Source: an uncultured Deferribacteres bacterium (GTDB lineage Bacteria > Zhuqueibacterota > Zhuqueibacteria > Zhuqueibacterales > Geothermadaptataceae). Taken from it: DNA of 46,962 nt. The DNA is taken from contig CAXHAT010000040.1 in the NCBI GenBank assembly GCA_964014485.1, positions 1-46,962 of the forward strand. The letters are read 5' to 3'. The notes under the pieces were generated by a model that was not told where the DNA came from, did no database searches, and worked only from the letters and a program-made list of their open reading frames with translations. Numbering within the stretch: the first letter of the stretch is position 1; every line of letters starts with the position of its first letter. This document shows positions 3,872 through 17,056 of this stretch, piece by piece. The position numbers and the translations under genes are program-made.

Positions 3872-5734
3872 TCAGCGGTAAATATCTGCCTGGAGGCCAA
3901 ATTGATTCGATGATTTGCGCTGAGCTCTGCGCATATGATACGCGTAAGCGCTTAGTTTGACGCTTCCGCCCAACTTCAAGCCGACCTGCCCAAATATTCT
4001 TTCGCCTTCCCCGGAAAACGCCGTCGCTCGAACTGCACCCGGCAATTGGTACTCGACCTGGTAAATTCTGCCGTCAAAACTTGGGATCGAAAAATAGGAG
4101 TAACGAACGGTTCCGGAAACCGGGTTGACTCTTAGTTGAAATTCGTGCATTTGCGCAAGCCCGATTTCCGGGCGCATACGTTCTTCTTTATAGCGAGAAA
4201 TATCGATTCGGAAGCGATAACGCAGAACACGATGCAAATAAGTTTGCAGTTGCAGCCGCCATTGAAAGCTTTTTTCATTCAAGAGAACATCGCTCGGGCG
4301 CTGTTGAAGCAATGTGTCTGAGAACGTGGTATGGTCGCCAGTACCGTAGCGAAACCTGGAGAGCATGGTTGTTTTTCGAAAGACGGTTTTCTCCCATTGC
4401 AAACCGAGACGCTCGTTTGCACTAGGTTGCGGTATAAAAAACGTTCGCCACAATGATGCGCTTTTCGCGGCAAAGAGCGTAAATACGCCCATATTTTTTC
4501 GCGTCCGCAAACCAAAATAGAACGTTTGCTGATTGGAAGTCTCGCCGATGAATTCTCCCGGCAATGCGCCAAACGCATTTTGAAACCCCGGCTCGGCATA
4601 CCACCAGGCGATGGTGATTTGTGATTCCGGACGGCGTATTTTTAAGCCCGCAACAACTGCATTTTGTCTGTCGCTGTTCGCCCACTCAAAAAGCCAGCGA
4701 AACTTGCCGTCGTGAACAGATGATTGCATGAAGGCGCCGTAAATTAGGTTTTCCGTTCCGCGAAATGCAAAGCGATTTCGAGTCGTATCAGGCGAAAAAA
4801 TTGGGCGATTGTAGCGATGGCGGAAAATGTTCGCGCCGATGACGACGGCTGAAGAAGCGGAAACTGACAGCGATGCGCCAAGCGAAGTCTCTCGTAAAGC
4901 GTCTTTGGCTGCAATTTCGTTTTCCGTCCGATGATGGCCGGATTGCGGCAAACTGGAGGCGAAACCTTCAGAGGAAATTCTTGCGTCACGGGACGAGCGG
5001 GAAGCAAAGAAAAACGCGGTTACTGGGCCGCGATTTCCTTCCAAAGCGCCGCCGCGAAAAGCCAGATTTTCTTGCACTGATCTAAACGGCCGGACATTTG
5101 GCGACTCAAACCGCAGGACGCTTTCCGGAGAAGTGAGCGATGCGCCGCCAAAAGCTCCTGCTGCAACCAACCCGAGCCCTGCGCGTGTTGTAAAATCTCC
5201 AAGAGTCAGCCTGAGACCTCGTTTCGGGAACTCATGGCGTGTAAATCCGGATGAAAAATCTGCAAGCTGCGGCTCACCCGCATCTTTTTCTGTGATCAAT
5301 CCAAAAGAACTATTTCCGCGTTCAGCATCGAATCGAATCTGTTGCTGCCAGCCTTCGTCGAGGCGGCGGATTGTACGATTCCTGCCAAAGACGTTAACCG
5401 CAGCATGTACTTTTACGCTGAAAATTGCTTTGACGATTTCCATTGGAAGGCCGATACTGTCACTAATTTGGCGAAGCTTGATGTTCGGAAAATGCGTCGC
5501 GTACAACTGCATCAGCGTTTCAATTTGAGAAAGCTCGAGAAACCAGATTCTCTTGAGTTCGTCAAGAGCGACTTCGTTGATTCGAATCGGCTCTTCAACG
5601 AAAGTGCGAATGATGGCTTCAAGTTCGTCGGTCTCCAGATCTTCGTATTCTTCAAGCATGGTTTCTATGCTTTGCGCTTGCAACGACAGAGGAAAGAACA
5701 ACAGGAAAAAGTAGAGGGCGAAGCGCAAGATCAT
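3872..5734 (-). CDS. Helix-hairpin-helix (ComEA-like) domain protein with C-terminal beta-barrel
   Basis: Signal peptide, P-I-R-I-N...ELKRI HhH-like segment and the conserved EKDAGE motif of this FCB family. Its start overlaps the upstream stop (ATGA). Confidence 0.75.
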   Translation of the reverse strand: MILRFALYFFLLFFPLSLQAQSIETMLEEYEDLETDELEAIIRTFVEEPIRINEVALDELKRIWFLELSQIETLMQLYATHFPNIKLRQISDSIGLPMEIVKAIFSVKVHAAVNVFGRNRTIRRLDEGWQQQIRFDAERGNSSFGLITEKDAGEPQLADFSSGFTRHEFPKRGLRLTLGDFTTRAGLGLVAAGAFGGASLTSPESVLRFESPNVRPFRSVQENLAFRGGALEGNRGPVTAFFFASRSSRDARISSEGFASSLPQSGHHRTENEIAAKDALRETSLGASLSVSASSAVVIGANIFRHRYNRPIFSPDTTRNRFAFRGTENLIYGAFMQSSVHDGKFRWLFEWANSDRQNAVVAGLKIRRPESQITIAWWYAEPGFQNAFGALPGEFIGETSNQQTFYFGLRTRKNMGVFTLFAAKSASLWRTFFIPQPSANERLGLQWEKTVFRKTTMLSRFRYGTGDHTTFSDTLLQQRPSDVLLNEKSFQWRLQLQTYLHRVLRYRFRIDISRYKEERMRPEIGLAQMHEFQLRVNPVSGTVRYSYFSIPSFDGRIYQVEYQLPGAVRATAFSGEGERIFGQVGLKLGGSVKLSAYAYHMRRAQRKSSNQFGLQADIYR

Positions 5735-6537
5735 CGTTTGCCCCCCAGAATCGTGAATGAAAAAACATGGGATTGGCTCAAGGCAAAATGGTTTTGAAAC
5801 GCATAATCTAATGCAATTCGTGAGAAACGTAATCCAAAGCCTCCGGCAAATGAACTTGCGCCGTTCAAGCCCGTTCCTGCACGGAGAACGAGTACGCCGG
5901 CGGGCTGAAAATCGAAGGCTAACTTGTAATCCGGTTCAAAGCCTTGTTCTTGCGCGATTTCGAAATACAATTGGGCTTTGTCGAAAAGCGAAATTCGAGC
6001 GCCGGTGAGCAAACTTCTGATCGGCTTTTCGCCGCTTTGGCCAATTTCTGTCGCCGCCAGATTCTTCACCAAAAAACCGATCTCCAGTTGTTGATGGACG
6101 GGGGCGAACACGCCAAAATCGAACGCAACGTTCCCGGCCTCGCCGTAGTTTTCGACGATCAAGCGTCTGCGCTTAAATTTAAAGCCAACATGAAGTTTTG
6201 GCGAGAGCCGGAGAGCGGGCGCTGCGACGTAAAGCTTTTCATGAAAAAGCGCATTGCCGTACTGCAAATATCCTGCGCCGATGCTGTATCCTTTCCCGGC
6301 ATAATTTGCGGCCAGGGCGTAAACATCAATTTCGGTAAGACCAAAGGGATTATAGTGATTGAGCCAAAACGAGAAGTGGTCTTGCGTCGTCAATAAAGCA
6401 GGATTCAAAAATGTCGAGCCTGCGTGCTCATCGACAAGGGTTTCCTGAGAGTTCAACGCCATCGATCGTGAACCGATTGGCAAGGATTGGGAAAATGCCT
6501 GTGCGACAGAAAAGAGAGAAATGAGAAATGTGCGCAT
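5731..6537 (-). CDS. Outer-membrane beta-barrel, PorV/PorQ-like family
   Basis: Signal peptide; G-x-R-S-M-A-L ... F-L-N-P-A N-terminus; LRAG and DYAF..H..L..SH C-terminal motifs. Confidence 0.65.
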   Translation of the reverse strand: MRTFLISLFSVAQAFSQSLPIGSRSMALNSQETLVDEHAGSTFLNPALLTTQDHFSFWLNHYNPFGLTEIDVYALAANYAGKGYSIGAGYLQYGNALFHEKLYVAAPALRLSPKLHVGFKFKRRRLIVENYGEAGNVAFDFGVFAPVHQQLEIGFLVKNLAATEIGQSGEKPIRSLLTGARISLFDKAQLYFEIAQEQGFEPDYKLAFDFQPAGVLVLRAGTGLNGASSFAGGFGLRFSRIALDYAFQNHFALSQSHVFSFTILGGKR

Positions 6538-6608: not shown

Positions 6609-6652
6609 TTGCGAAATCTGGGTACAATACCGCTCACGACGAGGAATTGAAC

Positions 6653-7537
6653 ATGCGTCCGCCAAAAGAAAAAGTGATCAAAAAGCATATCGTTTGTGTT
6701 ATTCTCTTCACATTGTTGACCTTCGTTTTGTCGAATTCGACGATTGCTGCGCCGATCAATGATATTGTCGAAGTGAGCGTCAGTCTTGAGTTGAAGCAAT
6801 TGCCGCTCGACAAGCAGGAGAAAATGAGCGATTTTCGTGAAAAGCTGCTTAAATACCTCAATGACTACTCCTGGCTTGAAGACGGCGATGAAGAAGACAT
6901 GTATCCGTTTAAGCTTCATTTTCAGGTTTTCCTGGAAGACCGTCCGTCAAATATTGAAGACCGCTACCGTTGCTCCATCGTCGCTTCCGGGCCGGACAAT
7001 CAATATATTGATACGCGCGCTACTTTCGCCTTTCAGGAAGGAGAGCCTCTCGAGCATGACGGCCAAGTCACGTCGCTCAAACAATTGTTGGATTTTTATG
7101 TGTATTTATTGATTGCCGCTGAATTTGACAAATTGGGGCACCTTGAAGGCGCTCCTTATTTTGCCAAAGCGCGGGCGGCCTTAGAACAAGGAAAATTTGT
7201 ACGATTCCCCAACGGCTGGGATCGGCGCGACGAGCTTATGGAGCAGCTTGAGGGCGCGAATTACAAAAAATACCGTGAAATGGTAGACTACTATTTTTAC
7301 GCGCTCTCAATCTGGCCTGATGAAAAAGGCAAAGCGCGCGAAAATATGGCCAAAGCCATTTTCATGCTGCGTGAAATTAAATCAGCGGATGTGAATTTGG
7401 AAGCCCCGAAACATTTTATAAACGCCCATTACCAAGAAGTTATAGAACTCTTCAAGAATGCTTCGAACCGGGAGCCTATCGAAATCCTTAAAGAGCTCGA
7501 CCCCGACCGTGAAGATATTTACGATGAATATCTGTAG
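6653..7537 (+). CDS. DUF4835 family protein (T9SS-associated PorD-like)
   Basis: Signal peptide; SLKQLLDFYVYLLIAAEFDK...EGAPYFAKA and GW-x-x-R motifs; ends in LDP...Y like DUF4835 proteins. Confidence 0.75.
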   Translation: MRPPKEKVIKKHIVCVILFTLLTFVLSNSTIAAPINDIVEVSVSLELKQLPLDKQEKMSDFREKLLKYLNDYSWLEDGDEEDMYPFKLHFQVFLEDRPSNIEDRYRCSIVASGPDNQYIDTRATFAFQEGEPLEHDGQVTSLKQLLDFYVYLLIAAEFDKLGHLEGAPYFAKARAALEQGKFVRFPNGWDRRDELMEQLEGANYKKYREMVDYYFYALSIWPDEKGKARENMAKAIFMLREIKSADVNLEAPKHFINAHYQEVIELFKNASNREPIEILKELDPDREDIYDEYL

Positions 7538-7776: not shown

Positions 7777-8634
7777 TTACTGCCGTCCTCTCAAAAACAC
7801 AAGCCGTTTGACGATGCGTTCCCGCCCCGAGGTTAAAACATAAAAGTAAATTCCCGCAGGTGCAAAAGCGCCTTTTCCATTTCTGCCGTCCCAAGCCGCA
7901 TTGTACGCGCCGCCTGCAAGCGGAGCGTTGATGATCGACTTTATTTCTCTGCCAAGCAAATCATAAATCGTCAGCTTCGTGACGTTCTTCTCCGCGCCCG
8001 GCCCAAGATTAAATTTGAAAACCGTTCGGTCGACAAATGGGTTTGGCGCGTTGTTTTGCAAGGAAAAATCTTTAGGATTCGAAGCTTCTTCAGTGACGTT
8101 TGTCGTTGTGAGCAACTCATCCAGCTTGTCGAAGACTTCCTGCTTGTGCGTTTCGTAACGCGACGAGTAGCGCGTGCTTTGCGGCGTGATGTACTGAATG
8201 ACGCCGCTCGCATCAACAATCGCAATGCTGCTGCGGTCGATGTTATTCCAGGCATTGCCGAAAAATGCGCCTTGCATGGCCAGCGGATAAGTCACATTTC
8301 GGCCTGAGCCGCGAGCGTAGTTGTTGACCTGGCTGAATGAACCGTCCCAAACGTCAATGCCGACCACGGCCACGCCCTTGTCCTTATATGCCAGCCAAAG
8401 TTCGTTTTCCTGTTTCTGAGCCTCAGAAATGCAGGGGCCTCAGTAGCTGCCGAAAAAATTGTAGACGATAATCTGTCCGGCAAGTTCGCTCGACGAAAAC
8501 GTGCCTTGTATCACGCCTTCCTGGTATTTTGGCAGTTCTGTAAACGCTGGCGCCGTATCGCCGACCGTCTGCGCATGAGCAAACCCGACAACAAGCAGAC
8601 ACGCGAGTAACAACAAAAGTCTTACTTTTTTCAT
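7777..8634 (-). CDS. Secreted selenocysteine-containing redoxin (TlpA/AhpC-TSA-like, UxxC) with C-terminal FlgD-Ig/T9SS sorting domain, 285 aa
   Basis: ORFs 8440-8634 and 7777-8373 are in the same frame, separated only by TGA (8442-8440). Read-through gives VYNFFGSY-U-GPCISEAQKQENELWLAYKDKGVAVVGID. There is a signal peptide, a VGDTAPAFT start of domain, and an NxPNPF...IYDLLGREI...WDG...AGIYFY C-terminal domain. Confidence 0.88.
8409..8435 (-). promoter_or_regulatory. Putative bacterial SECIS hairpin
   Basis: mRNA after the UGA: GGCC-CCUG-CA-UUUCUGA-GGC-UCAGAAA-CAGG. This gives a 4+7 bp stem with a 2-nt bulge and a G-starting apical loop 17 nt from the UGA. Confidence 0.75.
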
Positions 8635-8653: not shown

Positions 8654-10033
8654 TCAGAATAACTTCACGCCTAAAAATCTGTCAAGTACCGTCAGAATGA
8701 AAACTATGCCGAGAACGATCGGTGCAATGTAGCTGACGGTCATATCGATAAATTTTTGTACGAACGACCCGGCGTAGCTCTCATTGCCAATCATGATCTG
8801 CTCATGCAGGTTTGATTTACGCCAAACATAGGCGGCGAAGACGGAGATCAAAAGTCCGCCCAGGGGCAAGAATGAATCGTTGGCAATGTATCCAACAAAA
8901 CTCATGAAATCCGTTGTCGCTACGCCCGGCAGCCCGAATGTCGTCGACCAGAAATCGGAAGCGCCGTTTGAGAGTAGGGAAGGAATGCCAATGACAAAAA
9001 TTGCCGCTGCCGTTCCCCAAACCGCGGTCTTTCTTTTGACCTTATGTTCATCAACGATATAGGCGACTGGCACCTCAAGCAACGAAACTGTAGAAGTTAA
9101 TGCGGCGAATGAAAGGAGGAGAAAAAAGAGCGTGCCGATAACCACGCCAAGAATCGGGCCGAGCGTCTCGAATACGCCGGGAAGCGTCGCGAAAATAAGC
9201 CCGGCGCCGCCGTTCGGCGGCAGCCCTTGCGAAAAAACAAGCGGGAACATCATCAAACCGGCGACGAAAGCGATGCCGACGTCCGCAAGCGTAATCATCG
9301 CGGCTGAAGTCACAATATTTTCTTTGCGGGACAGATAACTGCCGTAAGTAATTAAAGCGCCCATGCCGAGAGAGAGCGAGAAAAACGCTTGACCGAGCGC
9401 GCTATAAACCACCTGAAAATCGAGCTTGGAAAAATCCGGGACAAGATAGAACGAAACGCCTTCCATTGCCCGGGGCAGCGTGAAAGCGTAAATCACCAGA
9501 AAAACCATAATGCCGAGCAAAGAAGGCATCAATATTTTTGCGGCGCGTTCAATACCGCCGCTCACGCCGCGCGATACAATAAAAGCCGTCATACTCATGA
9601 AAATGATTCCGTAAAGCCCAATTTTTAGCCAGTCTTTGACAAACTCGCCAAACTGTGAGCCGATCTCAAAATTGGCCGAGATCATTTCAACAACGTACCC
9701 AAACGCCCACGCTGCGACGACATTATAAAAGGACAAGATCAGCACGCCGGAGCCAATCCCAAGTAGGCCGAGAAACGCCCAGTTTTTATAGCCAAGCGCT
9801 TTGTAGGCGCCGACGGGGTTTTTGCTCGTTTTTCGCCCGATGGCGATTTCCGTAACCATCACCGGAAAACAGAGGACAAAGCAGAAAAACAGATAGAGCA
9901 GAACAAAAGCTGCGCCGCCGCTGGCGCCGACTTTGAATGGAAATTGCCAAATATTACCCAGCCCGATGGCGGAGCCTGCCGCGGCGAGTACAAATCCGAT
10001 CCGTGAGCTCCACTGCCCTCTTTGCGCGTTCAT
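8654..10033 (-). CDS. Sodium-dependent transporter, NSS/SNF (LeuT-like) family
   Basis: WSSRIGFVLAAAGSAIGLGNIWQFP and GQAFFSLSLGMGALITYGSY signatures; about 11 hydrophobic segments. Confidence 0.95.
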   Translation of the reverse strand: MNAQRGQWSSRIGFVLAAAGSAIGLGNIWQFPFKVGASGGAAFVLLYLFFCFVLCFPVMVTEIAIGRKTSKNPVGAYKALGYKNWAFLGLLGIGSGVLILSFYNVVAAWAFGYVVEMISANFEIGSQFGEFVKDWLKIGLYGIIFMSMTAFIVSRGVSGGIERAAKILMPSLLGIMVFLVIYAFTLPRAMEGVSFYLVPDFSKLDFQVVYSALGQAFFSLSLGMGALITYGSYLSRKENIVTSAAMITLADVGIAFVAGLMMFPLVFSQGLPPNGGAGLIFATLPGVFETLGPILGVVIGTLFFLLLSFAALTSTVSLLEVPVAYIVDEHKVKRKTAVWGTAAAIFVIGIPSLLSNGASDFWSTTFGLPGVATTDFMSFVGYIANDSFLPLGGLLISVFAAYVWRKSNLHEQIMIGNESYAGSFVQKFIDMTVSYIAPIVLGIVFILTVLDRFLGVKLF

Positions 10034-16639: not shown

Positions 16640-17056
16640 CTGATGTTACGCACTCTTGAAAATTTCTCAAGCAGCACCAGATGAAAGTCGCTTTTACGGC
16701 ATTCCCGCGCAGGCGCACGCGCGATAAAAAGGTTGTGGATAACTTGCAACTTGTCCCGGATGGATATTCGAAAATAGCCAGCCAATTCATTGGCTGGACT
16801 GAAGTTACGCCCGATTTCCATAAAGTCCCGCAAGGGACGATTGAAGTTGAGCGTTGTGTAAAAATCTCAGTCGTCCCTGCCGGGACTTCACTCGAAACAT
16901 GGCTGATTTTGCCCCGCCAATGAATTGGCGGGCTAGTTTCGGCCGTCCCTCTGGGACTGATTTGAGTTATCCACATTCTTTTTATCGCGCGTGCGCCTGC
17001 GCGGGAATGACTTTAACAGGAGTTTCTTTGGCTTCATCGCTGGCGCGTAAAATCAG
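16640..17056. mobile_element. MITE (417 bp) with 12-bp TIRs and 7-bp TSD, containing nested inverted-repeat elements
   Basis: TIRs CTGATGTTACGC (16640-16651) and GCGTAAAATCAG (17045-17056). Direct repeats ATAGTAA at 16633-16639 and 17057-17063. Inner IR layers at 16700-16744/16965-17009 and 16753-16957. Confidence 0.85.

Follow-up and report, generated by a model that had tools for sequence, protein, structure and literature searches.

The subject of this analysis is a stretch of 46,962 nucleotides, referred to here as the window, which comprises positions 1 to 46,962 of contig CAXHAT010000040.1 in the GenBank assembly GCA_964014485.1 of an uncultured Deferribacteres bacterium (Zhuqueibacterota in the GTDB lineage). 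On its minus strand, two called open reading frames (ORFs) form one frame that is interrupted by a single TGA triplet. We hold with high confidence that they represent one hidden gene, whose predicted product is an exported redoxin of the TlpA/ResA-like kind that contains selenocysteine (Sec, or U in motifs), begins with a signal peptide, ends with a type A sorting tail of a type IX secretion system (T9SS), acquires its Sec at the TGA, and would act in thiol-disulfide reduction. Judging from the sequence comparisons, the active-site residue at position 65 is almost certainly Sec. The initial annotation, a note made from the letters of the window alone, had arrived at the same general interpretation, i.e., a UGA read as Sec in a UxxC redoxin, a Sec insertion sequence (SECIS), a signal peptide, and a T9SS-type tail, and this interpretation is now supported by homologs, covariation, and the sel genes of the organism. 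The single frame, the alternation of Sec and cysteine (Cys), the covarying hairpin, the Sec machinery, the domains, and the T9SS genes were all established by computation.

The frame runs from an ATG at position 8634 to a TAA at position 7777 and comprises 285 codons with one internal stop, the TGA at 8440-8442 (codon 65), which agrees with what had been proposed for the two ORFs. Translation with genetic code table 11 breaks the frame into an ORF of 64 amino acids (8440..8634) and another one of 198 amino acids (7777..8373). The context of codon 65, NFFGSY-TGA-GPC, puts the TGA where a CxxC-type motif has its first residue. The sequence AGGA is found 9-13 nt upstream of the ATG at 8634. The correctness of the assembly at codon 65 had been raised as a point to be checked, and the TGA was found without difference in contigs from two public runs, these being contigs rather than raw reads, at low depth, from one study, and with one of the runs maybe derived from the source sample.

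Homologs were sought with the whole protein in 41 related genomes and with residues 1-175 in 167 genomes of the phylum. In the whole-protein search, 11 matches, that of the window gene among them, ran on beyond the redoxin domain into the tail, and each one had exactly one TGA. The search with residues 1-175 produced a match at E <= 1e-8 in 43 of the 167 genomes, and an in-frame TGA was present in 18 of the 48 matches listed. A total of 33 sequences, 30 from the latter search and three from the former, were inspected at the locus; the 18 of the 48 places without a locus stand outside this count. The first position of the motif was TGA in 16 sequences and TGT or TGC in the other 17, with no other residue in any of the 33. 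The TGA therefore takes the place of the first Cys of a thioredoxin-type motif, as the initial annotation had claimed, and tryptophan (Trp) was never found there. The 15 TGA homologs in other genomes of the same phylum have the triplet at exactly the same column as the window gene, and the TGA forms span seven GTDB families. Their motifs fall into three groups: GSY-U-xxC (G000, which is the source genome, G001, G163, and G166), G[YH][NTS]-U-xxC (G003, G008, G009, G011, G014, G016, G027, G125, and G126), and A[ST]W-U-xxC (G013, G040, and G051). None of the claims rests on G016, a genome that is unpublished.

Cys forms that share the redoxin and tail architecture were identified in G147, G108, G127, and G066, and also in P0007, a 280-amino acid protein with the motif GSY-C-PIC from a large public protein collection. 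The identity between a Sec form and a Cys form is 59% for the pair G125 (U) and G108 (C) and 52% for the pair G126 (U) and G127 (C), which indicates that the exchange of Sec and Cys took place between close relatives. An alignment of 19 homologs showed conservation from residue 25 to the C-terminus, i.e., on both sides of codon 65, as the initial annotation had suggested should be verified, and the motif columns were invariant, with U or C at the first and C at the second. A Cys copy and a TGA copy were found side by side in G147 (L043, C256).

The TGA is followed by a hairpin located inside the coding sequence. It consists of a lower stem (CCUG/CAGG), a CA bulge, an upper stem (UUUCUGA/UCAGAAA), and the loop GGC, with a minimum free energy (MFE) of -10.6 kcal/mol, and the distance from the UGA to the loop is 17 nt, all as first described. 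The consensus for bacterial SECIS elements (bSECIS), as set out in an excerpt of PMC13188914, includes an apical loop of 3-9 nt, an upper stem of 4-16 bp, a G in the first two loop positions, a distance of 16-37 nt between the UGA and the loop, and an MFE <= -7.5 kcal/mol. With a GGC loop, a 7-bp upper stem, and the spacing and energy given above, the window element is in agreement with the consensus as excerpted there. When the same 19 codons were synonymously recoded, an equally stable hairpin with a G loop was obtained in only 3 out of 1000 recodings.

A comparable structure was present in all 16 TGA forms, where a stem of 5-8 bp begins 12-22 nt from the U of the UGA and the loop is GGC, GUC, GGU, GUU, or AGGCA. 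No such hairpin was detected in 10 of the 17 Cys forms, and the two best ones reached -4.9 and -3.7 kcal/mol. The fraction of synonymous recodings as stable as the natural sequence was <= 0.05 in 11 of the 16 TGA forms and in none of the Cys forms. Eight TGA forms have the hairpin in one register, and in these there were compensatory changes at 6 of the 8 stem pairs; 89% of the cells were paired, versus 25-50% when the partners were slid by 1-3 columns, and the covariation score was reached by none of 500 shuffles. Pair counting was confined to these eight sequences because MAFFT re-aligned all 16 by sequence; the hairpins of the other TGA forms were analyzed by script. The hairpins of the 16 TGA forms occupy three registers relative to the codons, which differ between clades, an indication that what is kept is the structure rather than the peptide. 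The hairpin, whose conservation had also been left to be checked, is thus kept throughout the TGA forms and covaries in the eight that were counted. No Rfam family was found at the hairpin at gathering thresholds, a result that is uninformative, as the coverage of bacterial SECIS elements in Rfam was unchecked. One Cys form, that of G066 (L066), has a 6-bp stem with the loop AGG and -3.7 kcal/mol about 14-28 nt after the Cys codon. This weak hairpin may be the remnant of a recent change from Sec to Cys.

The source genome (8.4 Mb in 465 contigs, 97% complete) includes selA (567 bits), selB (332 bits), and selD (377 bits), each over its curated cut-off, as well as a tRNA-Sec that scored 68.8 bits, also above the cut-off, and was called by ARAGORN as tRNA-SeC with the anticodon tca. 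All the components of the machinery that the initial annotation had named were therefore found in the same genome. The selD gene (L001, G000:C68:143-1069, minus strand) has itself one in-frame TGA, which is read as part of CGUAAK. SelD, as predicted from this frame, is itself a selenoprotein and the product of a second Sec-decoding gene in the organism.

The read-through product (P0001, searched with C standing for U) matched the Pfam family Redoxin (PF08534) along residues 24-151 with 41.4 bits (cut-off 26.6) and AhpC-TSA (PF00578) with 30.8 bits (cut-off 26). An AlphaFold2 model built on the 19-sequence alignment had a mean predicted local distance difference test score (pLDDT) of 88, with values above 90 in the redoxin domain and of about 71-75 in the linker. 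The model shows a thioredoxin fold, in which residue 66, next to U65, is the first of a helix, and a C-terminal beta-sandwich. The top matches of this model in a Foldseek search of the PDB were B. thetaiotaomicron 2ls5, ResA, DsbE, and the C-terminal domain of DipZ, with peroxiredoxins interspersed among them. A comparison of the family profile with the PDB sequences was more discriminating: 2ls5 was matched at 9.5e-27 (27% identity) and ResA chains at 1e-24 to 1e-21, while the best peroxiredoxin chain was matched at 5.8e-9, so that ResA-type proteins are favored by at least 12 orders of magnitude. The active-site context, N-F-F-G-S-Y-U-G-P-C, fits the F-W-x-[ST]-W-C-x-x-C found in the aligned chains of ResA and 2ls5. 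With its motif at the beginning of helix 1, it also has the wider F-[WF]-x-[ST]-[WY]-C-x-x-C context of TlpA/ResA-like oxidoreductases (cd02966), with U for the first C.

The N-terminal sequence, MKKVRLLLLLACLLVVGFAHA-Q, resembles a signal peptide of the Sec pathway, as the initial annotation had claimed for the 285-amino acid product; on visual inspection, rather than by a predictor, its n, h, and c regions look typical. A similar hydrophobic N-terminal segment is found in all 19 aligned homologs. The possibility that 'LLAC' (residues 9-12) signals a lipoprotein was considered and rejected, given that it lies too near the N-terminus, that the residue at -2 is atypical, and that the Cys is missing in homologs. 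At the other end of the protein, residues 197-279 (83 residues) matched the T9SS type A sorting domain TIGR04183 with 37 bits (cut-off 23), and a genome-wide search gave the match at the same place with 33.4 bits. This result agrees with the initial assignment of NxPNPF...IYDLLGRE...WDG...AGIYFY to a T9SS/FlgD-type domain; the C-terminal domain also matched FlgD_ig in Pfam. The T9SS is found across the Fibrobacterota, Chlorobiota, and Bacteroidota (FCB) superphylum according to a review of the system, the text of which makes no mention of thioredoxin, redox, or seleno cargo. In the source genome there are genes for PorU (825 bits, cut-off 420) and SprA (693+180 bits, over the cut-off), and at least 150 ORFs, including the window gene, have a TIGR04183 tail. 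On the strength of the tail and these genes, we infer that the predicted protein would be exported by the T9SS.

A number of results weigh against the interpretation of the window gene as an exported Sec-containing ResA-like reductase. The energy of the hairpin is not by itself above chance, as 33 of 200 dinucleotide shuffles were as stable, and the folding energy of the 61-nt stretch was matched by 72 of 200. The recoding fractions of the five TGA forms of the 'AAGPATE' clade are 0.21-0.38, and their hairpins are inseparable from the codon constraints because the peptide nearly forces GGCUGGUCCAGCC. With respect to the chemistry, Ser135 occupies the position of the cis-Pro of ResA both in the alignment and in the profile, as the initial annotation had supposed when it placed IDRSSIAIVD there, and for this reason the chemistry may differ from that of ResA. 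The cis-Pro is kept in the A[ST]W-U homologs of G040 and G051, the remaining members of the family have Ser, Asp, or His, and the solved relative 2ls5 is likewise without it in the profile alignment. The NCBIfam model for ResA, NF002854, gave 40 bits, so far under its cut-off of 170 that the protein is not a ResA ortholog, and the DsbE model TIGR00385 gave 17.8 bits (cut-off 123). With respect to export, a PorV-like gene scored 247.9 bits, about 2 bits short of the cut-off of 250, and searches of this 97%-complete genome with TIGR03513, TIGR03517, and PF12081, of which the TIGR models matched no control genome, detected neither GldL/PorL nor GldM/PorM. The phylum may have a divergent secretion motor or one of a different kind. 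Finally, we know of no electron donor outside the outer membrane.

Selenols reduce peroxides quickly, and one alternative is that the same selenoprotein is a peroxidase, either peroxiredoxin (Prx)-like or glutathione peroxidase (GPx)-like, in which the peroxidatic residue would be Sec65 and the resolving one Cys68. The match to AhpC-TSA above the cut-off, the presence of peroxiredoxins among the fold matches, and the loss of the cis-Pro are compatible with this function, and so is the Arg located two residues ahead of the strand ('DRSS'), which recalls the Arg of peroxiredoxins and is present as Arg134 in 7 of the 9 closest sequences. However, the PxxxT/SxxC(U) motif is absent, with Tyr58 (-7) and Gly62 (-3) at the positions of Pro and Thr; a review of selenoproteins gives PxxxTxxU as the motif of Prx selenoproteins. 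Of the 19 aligned family members, the other 15 lack Arg134; G001 and P0007 have Gln or Ser at its position, and the wider family has Asn, Tyr, Val, or Thr. The profile places the ResA-type chains at 1e-27 to 1e-21, well ahead of any peroxiredoxin, and the active-site context is that of ResA and 2ls5. A peroxidase is consequently an unlikely primary function, and the hint in the initial annotation that peroxidase activity should be preferred to disulfide-reductase activity is not supported, given the lack of the PxxxTxxC motif, the limited occurrence of the Arg, and the profile scores. A peroxidase side activity of the selenol is possible.

Another alternative concerns the location. The same selenoprotein could be periplasmic, in which case the Ig-like domain would bind or anchor it, its action would be TlpA/ResA-like on envelope proteins, and it would be recharged by DsbD/CcdA. 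This scheme draws on the failure to find GldL and GldM with three models, two of which had no match in any control genome, on the match of the C-terminal domain to FlgD_ig, and on the TlpA-like Cys redoxin genes located beside the Sec gene in G163, G166, and G013. In addition, the only electron donors known to us are periplasmic. Nonetheless, the tail is above the TIGR04183 cut-off, and without working export it would be hard to explain why the genome has PorU, SprA, the PorV-like gene, and this tail on at least 150 ORFs. We consider a periplasmic location improbable.

The idea of a pseudogene, or of two small genes, with the TGA as a nonsense mutation or an assembly error, accounts for the two ORFs that table-11 gene callers yield but is hardly credible in view of a TGA at one column in 16 genomes with the protein conserved on either side, the conserved hairpin after it, the agreement between the window sequence and the contigs of two runs, and a 198-amino acid piece that would be without active site and signal peptide. 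Low-level read-through of UGA by the tRNAs for Trp or Cys occurs in bacteria, and the UGA could in principle be read as Trp, Gly, or Cys by this route or through a reassigned code, an explanation that has no specific support and appears very improbable: the homologs have Cys at the column rather than Trp or Gly, the genome has the full Sec machinery plus the second selenoprotein SelD, and the adjacent SNF symporter gene ends with a TGA 19 nt ahead of the start codon of the selenoprotein gene, which shows that TGA terminates genes here in the usual way and that the code is not reassigned.

Taking the product as an exported Sec-containing redoxin, a pathway can be proposed for its synthesis and function. 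SelB bound to Sec-tRNA(Sec) would recognize the hairpin at 8409-8435 and insert Sec at the UGA at 8440-8442, giving rise to a precursor of roughly 31 kDa composed of the Sec-pathway signal peptide, the UGPC thioredoxin-fold domain, a short linker, and the sorting domain. The precursor would cross the inner membrane via the Sec pathway and fold in the periplasm, and its C-terminal domain would then direct it to the SprA translocon. PorU would be expected to remove the tail, and the redoxin would be left on the cell surface or released. In that setting, U65 would use its selenolate to attack disulfides, or oxidized sulfur or selenium species of other kinds, and C68 would resolve the resulting selenenylsulfide. 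The reaction would be a thiol-disulfide reduction of the ResA/TlpA type in which selenium would be more nucleophilic and easier to recycle. In this scheme the actual insertion of Sec, the export, the cleavage of the tail, the substrate, and the electron donor are inferred; the features of the gene are collected in Table 1.

Table 1. Location of the Sec-containing redoxin gene, its predicted elements, and the adjacent genes in the window.
Feature	Positions	Strand	Basis
Whole coding sequence, 285 codons + TAA, with TGA(65) = Sec (predicted)	7777..8634	-	Frame analysis; full-length homolog alignment
Predicted Sec-type signal peptide, residues 1-22 (MKKVR, hydrophobic core, AHA/Q cleavage)	8569..8634	-	Inspection
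Redoxin domain (thioredoxin fold, TlpA/ResA-like), residues 24-151	8182..8565	-	PF08534; AlphaFold2 model; PDB matches
Active-site motif U65-G-P-C68; putative Sec codon TGA at 8440-8442	8431..8442	-	Homolog alignment
SECIS-like stem-loop inside the coding sequence	8409..8435	-	Folding; recoding; covariation
Linker, residues 176-196 (TTTNVTEEASNPKDF...)	8047..8109	-	Lower pLDDT; variable among homologs
T9SS type A C-terminal sorting domain, residues 197-279 (NAPNPF ... IYDLLGRE ... WDG ... AGIYFY)	7798..8046	-	TIGR04183
SNF-family sodium symporter, upstream neighbor	8654..10033	-	Frame and Pfam scan; also in G001
DUF4835, distant PorD-like, convergent downstream neighbor	6647..7537	+	Pfam PF16119, 89.9 bits

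The SNF symporter gene is adjacent to the selenoprotein gene in the source genome and in G001 only, and no functional link between them was seen. On the downstream side, the DUF4835 gene (6647-7537, plus strand) matched NCBIfam T9SS_PorD with 79 bits, under the cut-off of 170 bits, and the next gene (5731-6537, minus strand) showed a weak similarity to the PorQ/PorV family, with 32 bits, also under the cut-off. By these similarities, both genes are possible divergent T9SS components of the phylum. A gene for 620 amino acids at 3872-5734, which overlaps the one at 5731-6537 by 4 nt, had no family match. Elsewhere in the window, positions 16913-16958 (plus strand) matched the Rfam small RNA (sRNA) family Acido-Lenti-1 with 46.6 bits (gathering score 37).

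The neighborhood of the gene is different in other clades. In 9 of the 14 homolog loci examined (L044, L046, L047, L050, L051, L053, L054, L060, and L066), with both Sec and Cys forms represented, the redoxin-tail gene adjoins a gene for DUF6029 (PF19494), a protein of about 540 amino acids. DUF6029 is not found beside the window gene, the clade of which lacks this neighbor, and the source genome has only a weak partial match to it at a contig end. The corresponding upstream frame in G014, identified without a Pfam scan, has Phe as its last residue, as outer-membrane barrels do. DUF6029 may be a dedicated outer-membrane partner. Other arrangements were observed as well. The Sec redoxin-tail module of G013 (L035, L052; C60) is the C-terminal part of a 678-amino acid protein with a long N-terminal extension, and beside it is a gene for a TlpA-like Cys lipoprotein of 178 amino acids. 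In G163 and G166 (L040, L042), a classical ResA-like Cys redoxin gene is located directly downstream of the Sec gene. The adjacent Cys redoxins or copies in G013, G163, G166, and G147 suggest a periplasmic redoxin partner or relay.

The distribution beyond these genomes was examined with an alignment of nine sequences from the close clade, which retrieved 19 related loci; the window protein used alone retrieved none, and in 5 of the 19 the motif pattern did not locate an active site. Among the named records, the nearest relatives at these loci are metagenome-assembled genomes (MAGs) of candidate division KSB1. TGA forms with hairpins are also present in MAGs of Caldithrix sp., Candidatus Latescibacterota, and 'uncultured bacterium', and Cys forms are present in MAGs of Bacteroidales, Saprospiraceae, and Calditrichia. 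The phylum of the source genome and of the 15 other genomes with TGA homologs described above is probably KSB1. In the public protein collection, the window gene is represented only by the unnamed 198-amino acid C-terminal piece, and four close homologs appear as unnamed pieces of 194-205 amino acids that begin 14-25 residues past the motif; we would expect each of these four to have an upstream TGA.

Redoxins with a UxxC motif are a class listed in the selenoprotein review, and the kind of selenoprotein described here is therefore known. The window gene has in common with that class the Pfam families (PF08534 and PF00578), a UxxC with Sec first, a downstream bSECIS, and the existence of Cys homologs, but the review describes neither a T9SS tail nor a lost cis-Pro nor the phyla in question. 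The text of the review does not include the terms 'signal peptide', 'secreted', 'sorting', 'KSB1', 'Calditrich', or 'Latescibacter'. Bacillus ResA, rhizobial TlpA, DsbE (CcmG), and 2ls5 are the best profile and fold matches; they share with the window protein the context of the CxxC motif and an extracytoplasmic location, which in the latter is predicted. Unlike the ResA-type proteins, the window protein would have Sec for the first Cys, Ser for the cis-Pro, and a T9SS tail for the membrane anchor. P. gingivalis HBP35 can be considered a characterized Cys analog. As reported in excerpts of PMC2907840 and PMC3120885, HBP35 is a T9SS cargo with a thioredoxin-like CxxC domain and a C-terminal sorting domain, has thioredoxin activity in vitro, and is delivered to the surface via the Por system with loss of the tail. 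On the basis of these excerpts, the likeness is one of description rather than sequence, and HBP35 differs in using Cys and in also binding haem. In the literature on selenoproteins, selenocysteine, or KSB1 together with type IX secretion, no T9SS-tailed form was found, although supplements could list such genes. The architecture described here adds a new variant to a known class of selenoproteins and reveals no new principle.

The discussion of bacterial selenoproteins has, to our knowledge, been confined almost entirely to enzymes of the cytoplasm or periplasm. A Sec redoxin with a surface tail would bring selenium chemistry to the boundary where an anaerobe meets the surrounding sediment and raises the question of what recharges such an enzyme there. 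Tentatively, these proteins could be the first class of bacterial selenoenzymes outside the outer membrane, made up of surface Sec redoxins across FCB phyla (KSB1, Calditrichota, and Latescibacterota), a proposal we regard as possible but doubtful. Were it true, the use of selenium might be explained by the lack of a dedicated reductase system that extends to the cell surface, and the selenenylsulfide could be recycled by environmental sulfide or small thiols. Anaerobes could then reduce extracellular disulfides, polysulfides, or peroxides, and in sister clades a dedicated outer-membrane partner, DUF6029, may be involved. Public gene calls cut this family into pieces free of the active site, and censuses of selenoproteomes and of T9SS cargo consequently undercount in these uncultured phyla. 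Since Sec and Cys have been exchanged repeatedly between close relatives, the clade could serve for the study of why selenium is retained or lost.

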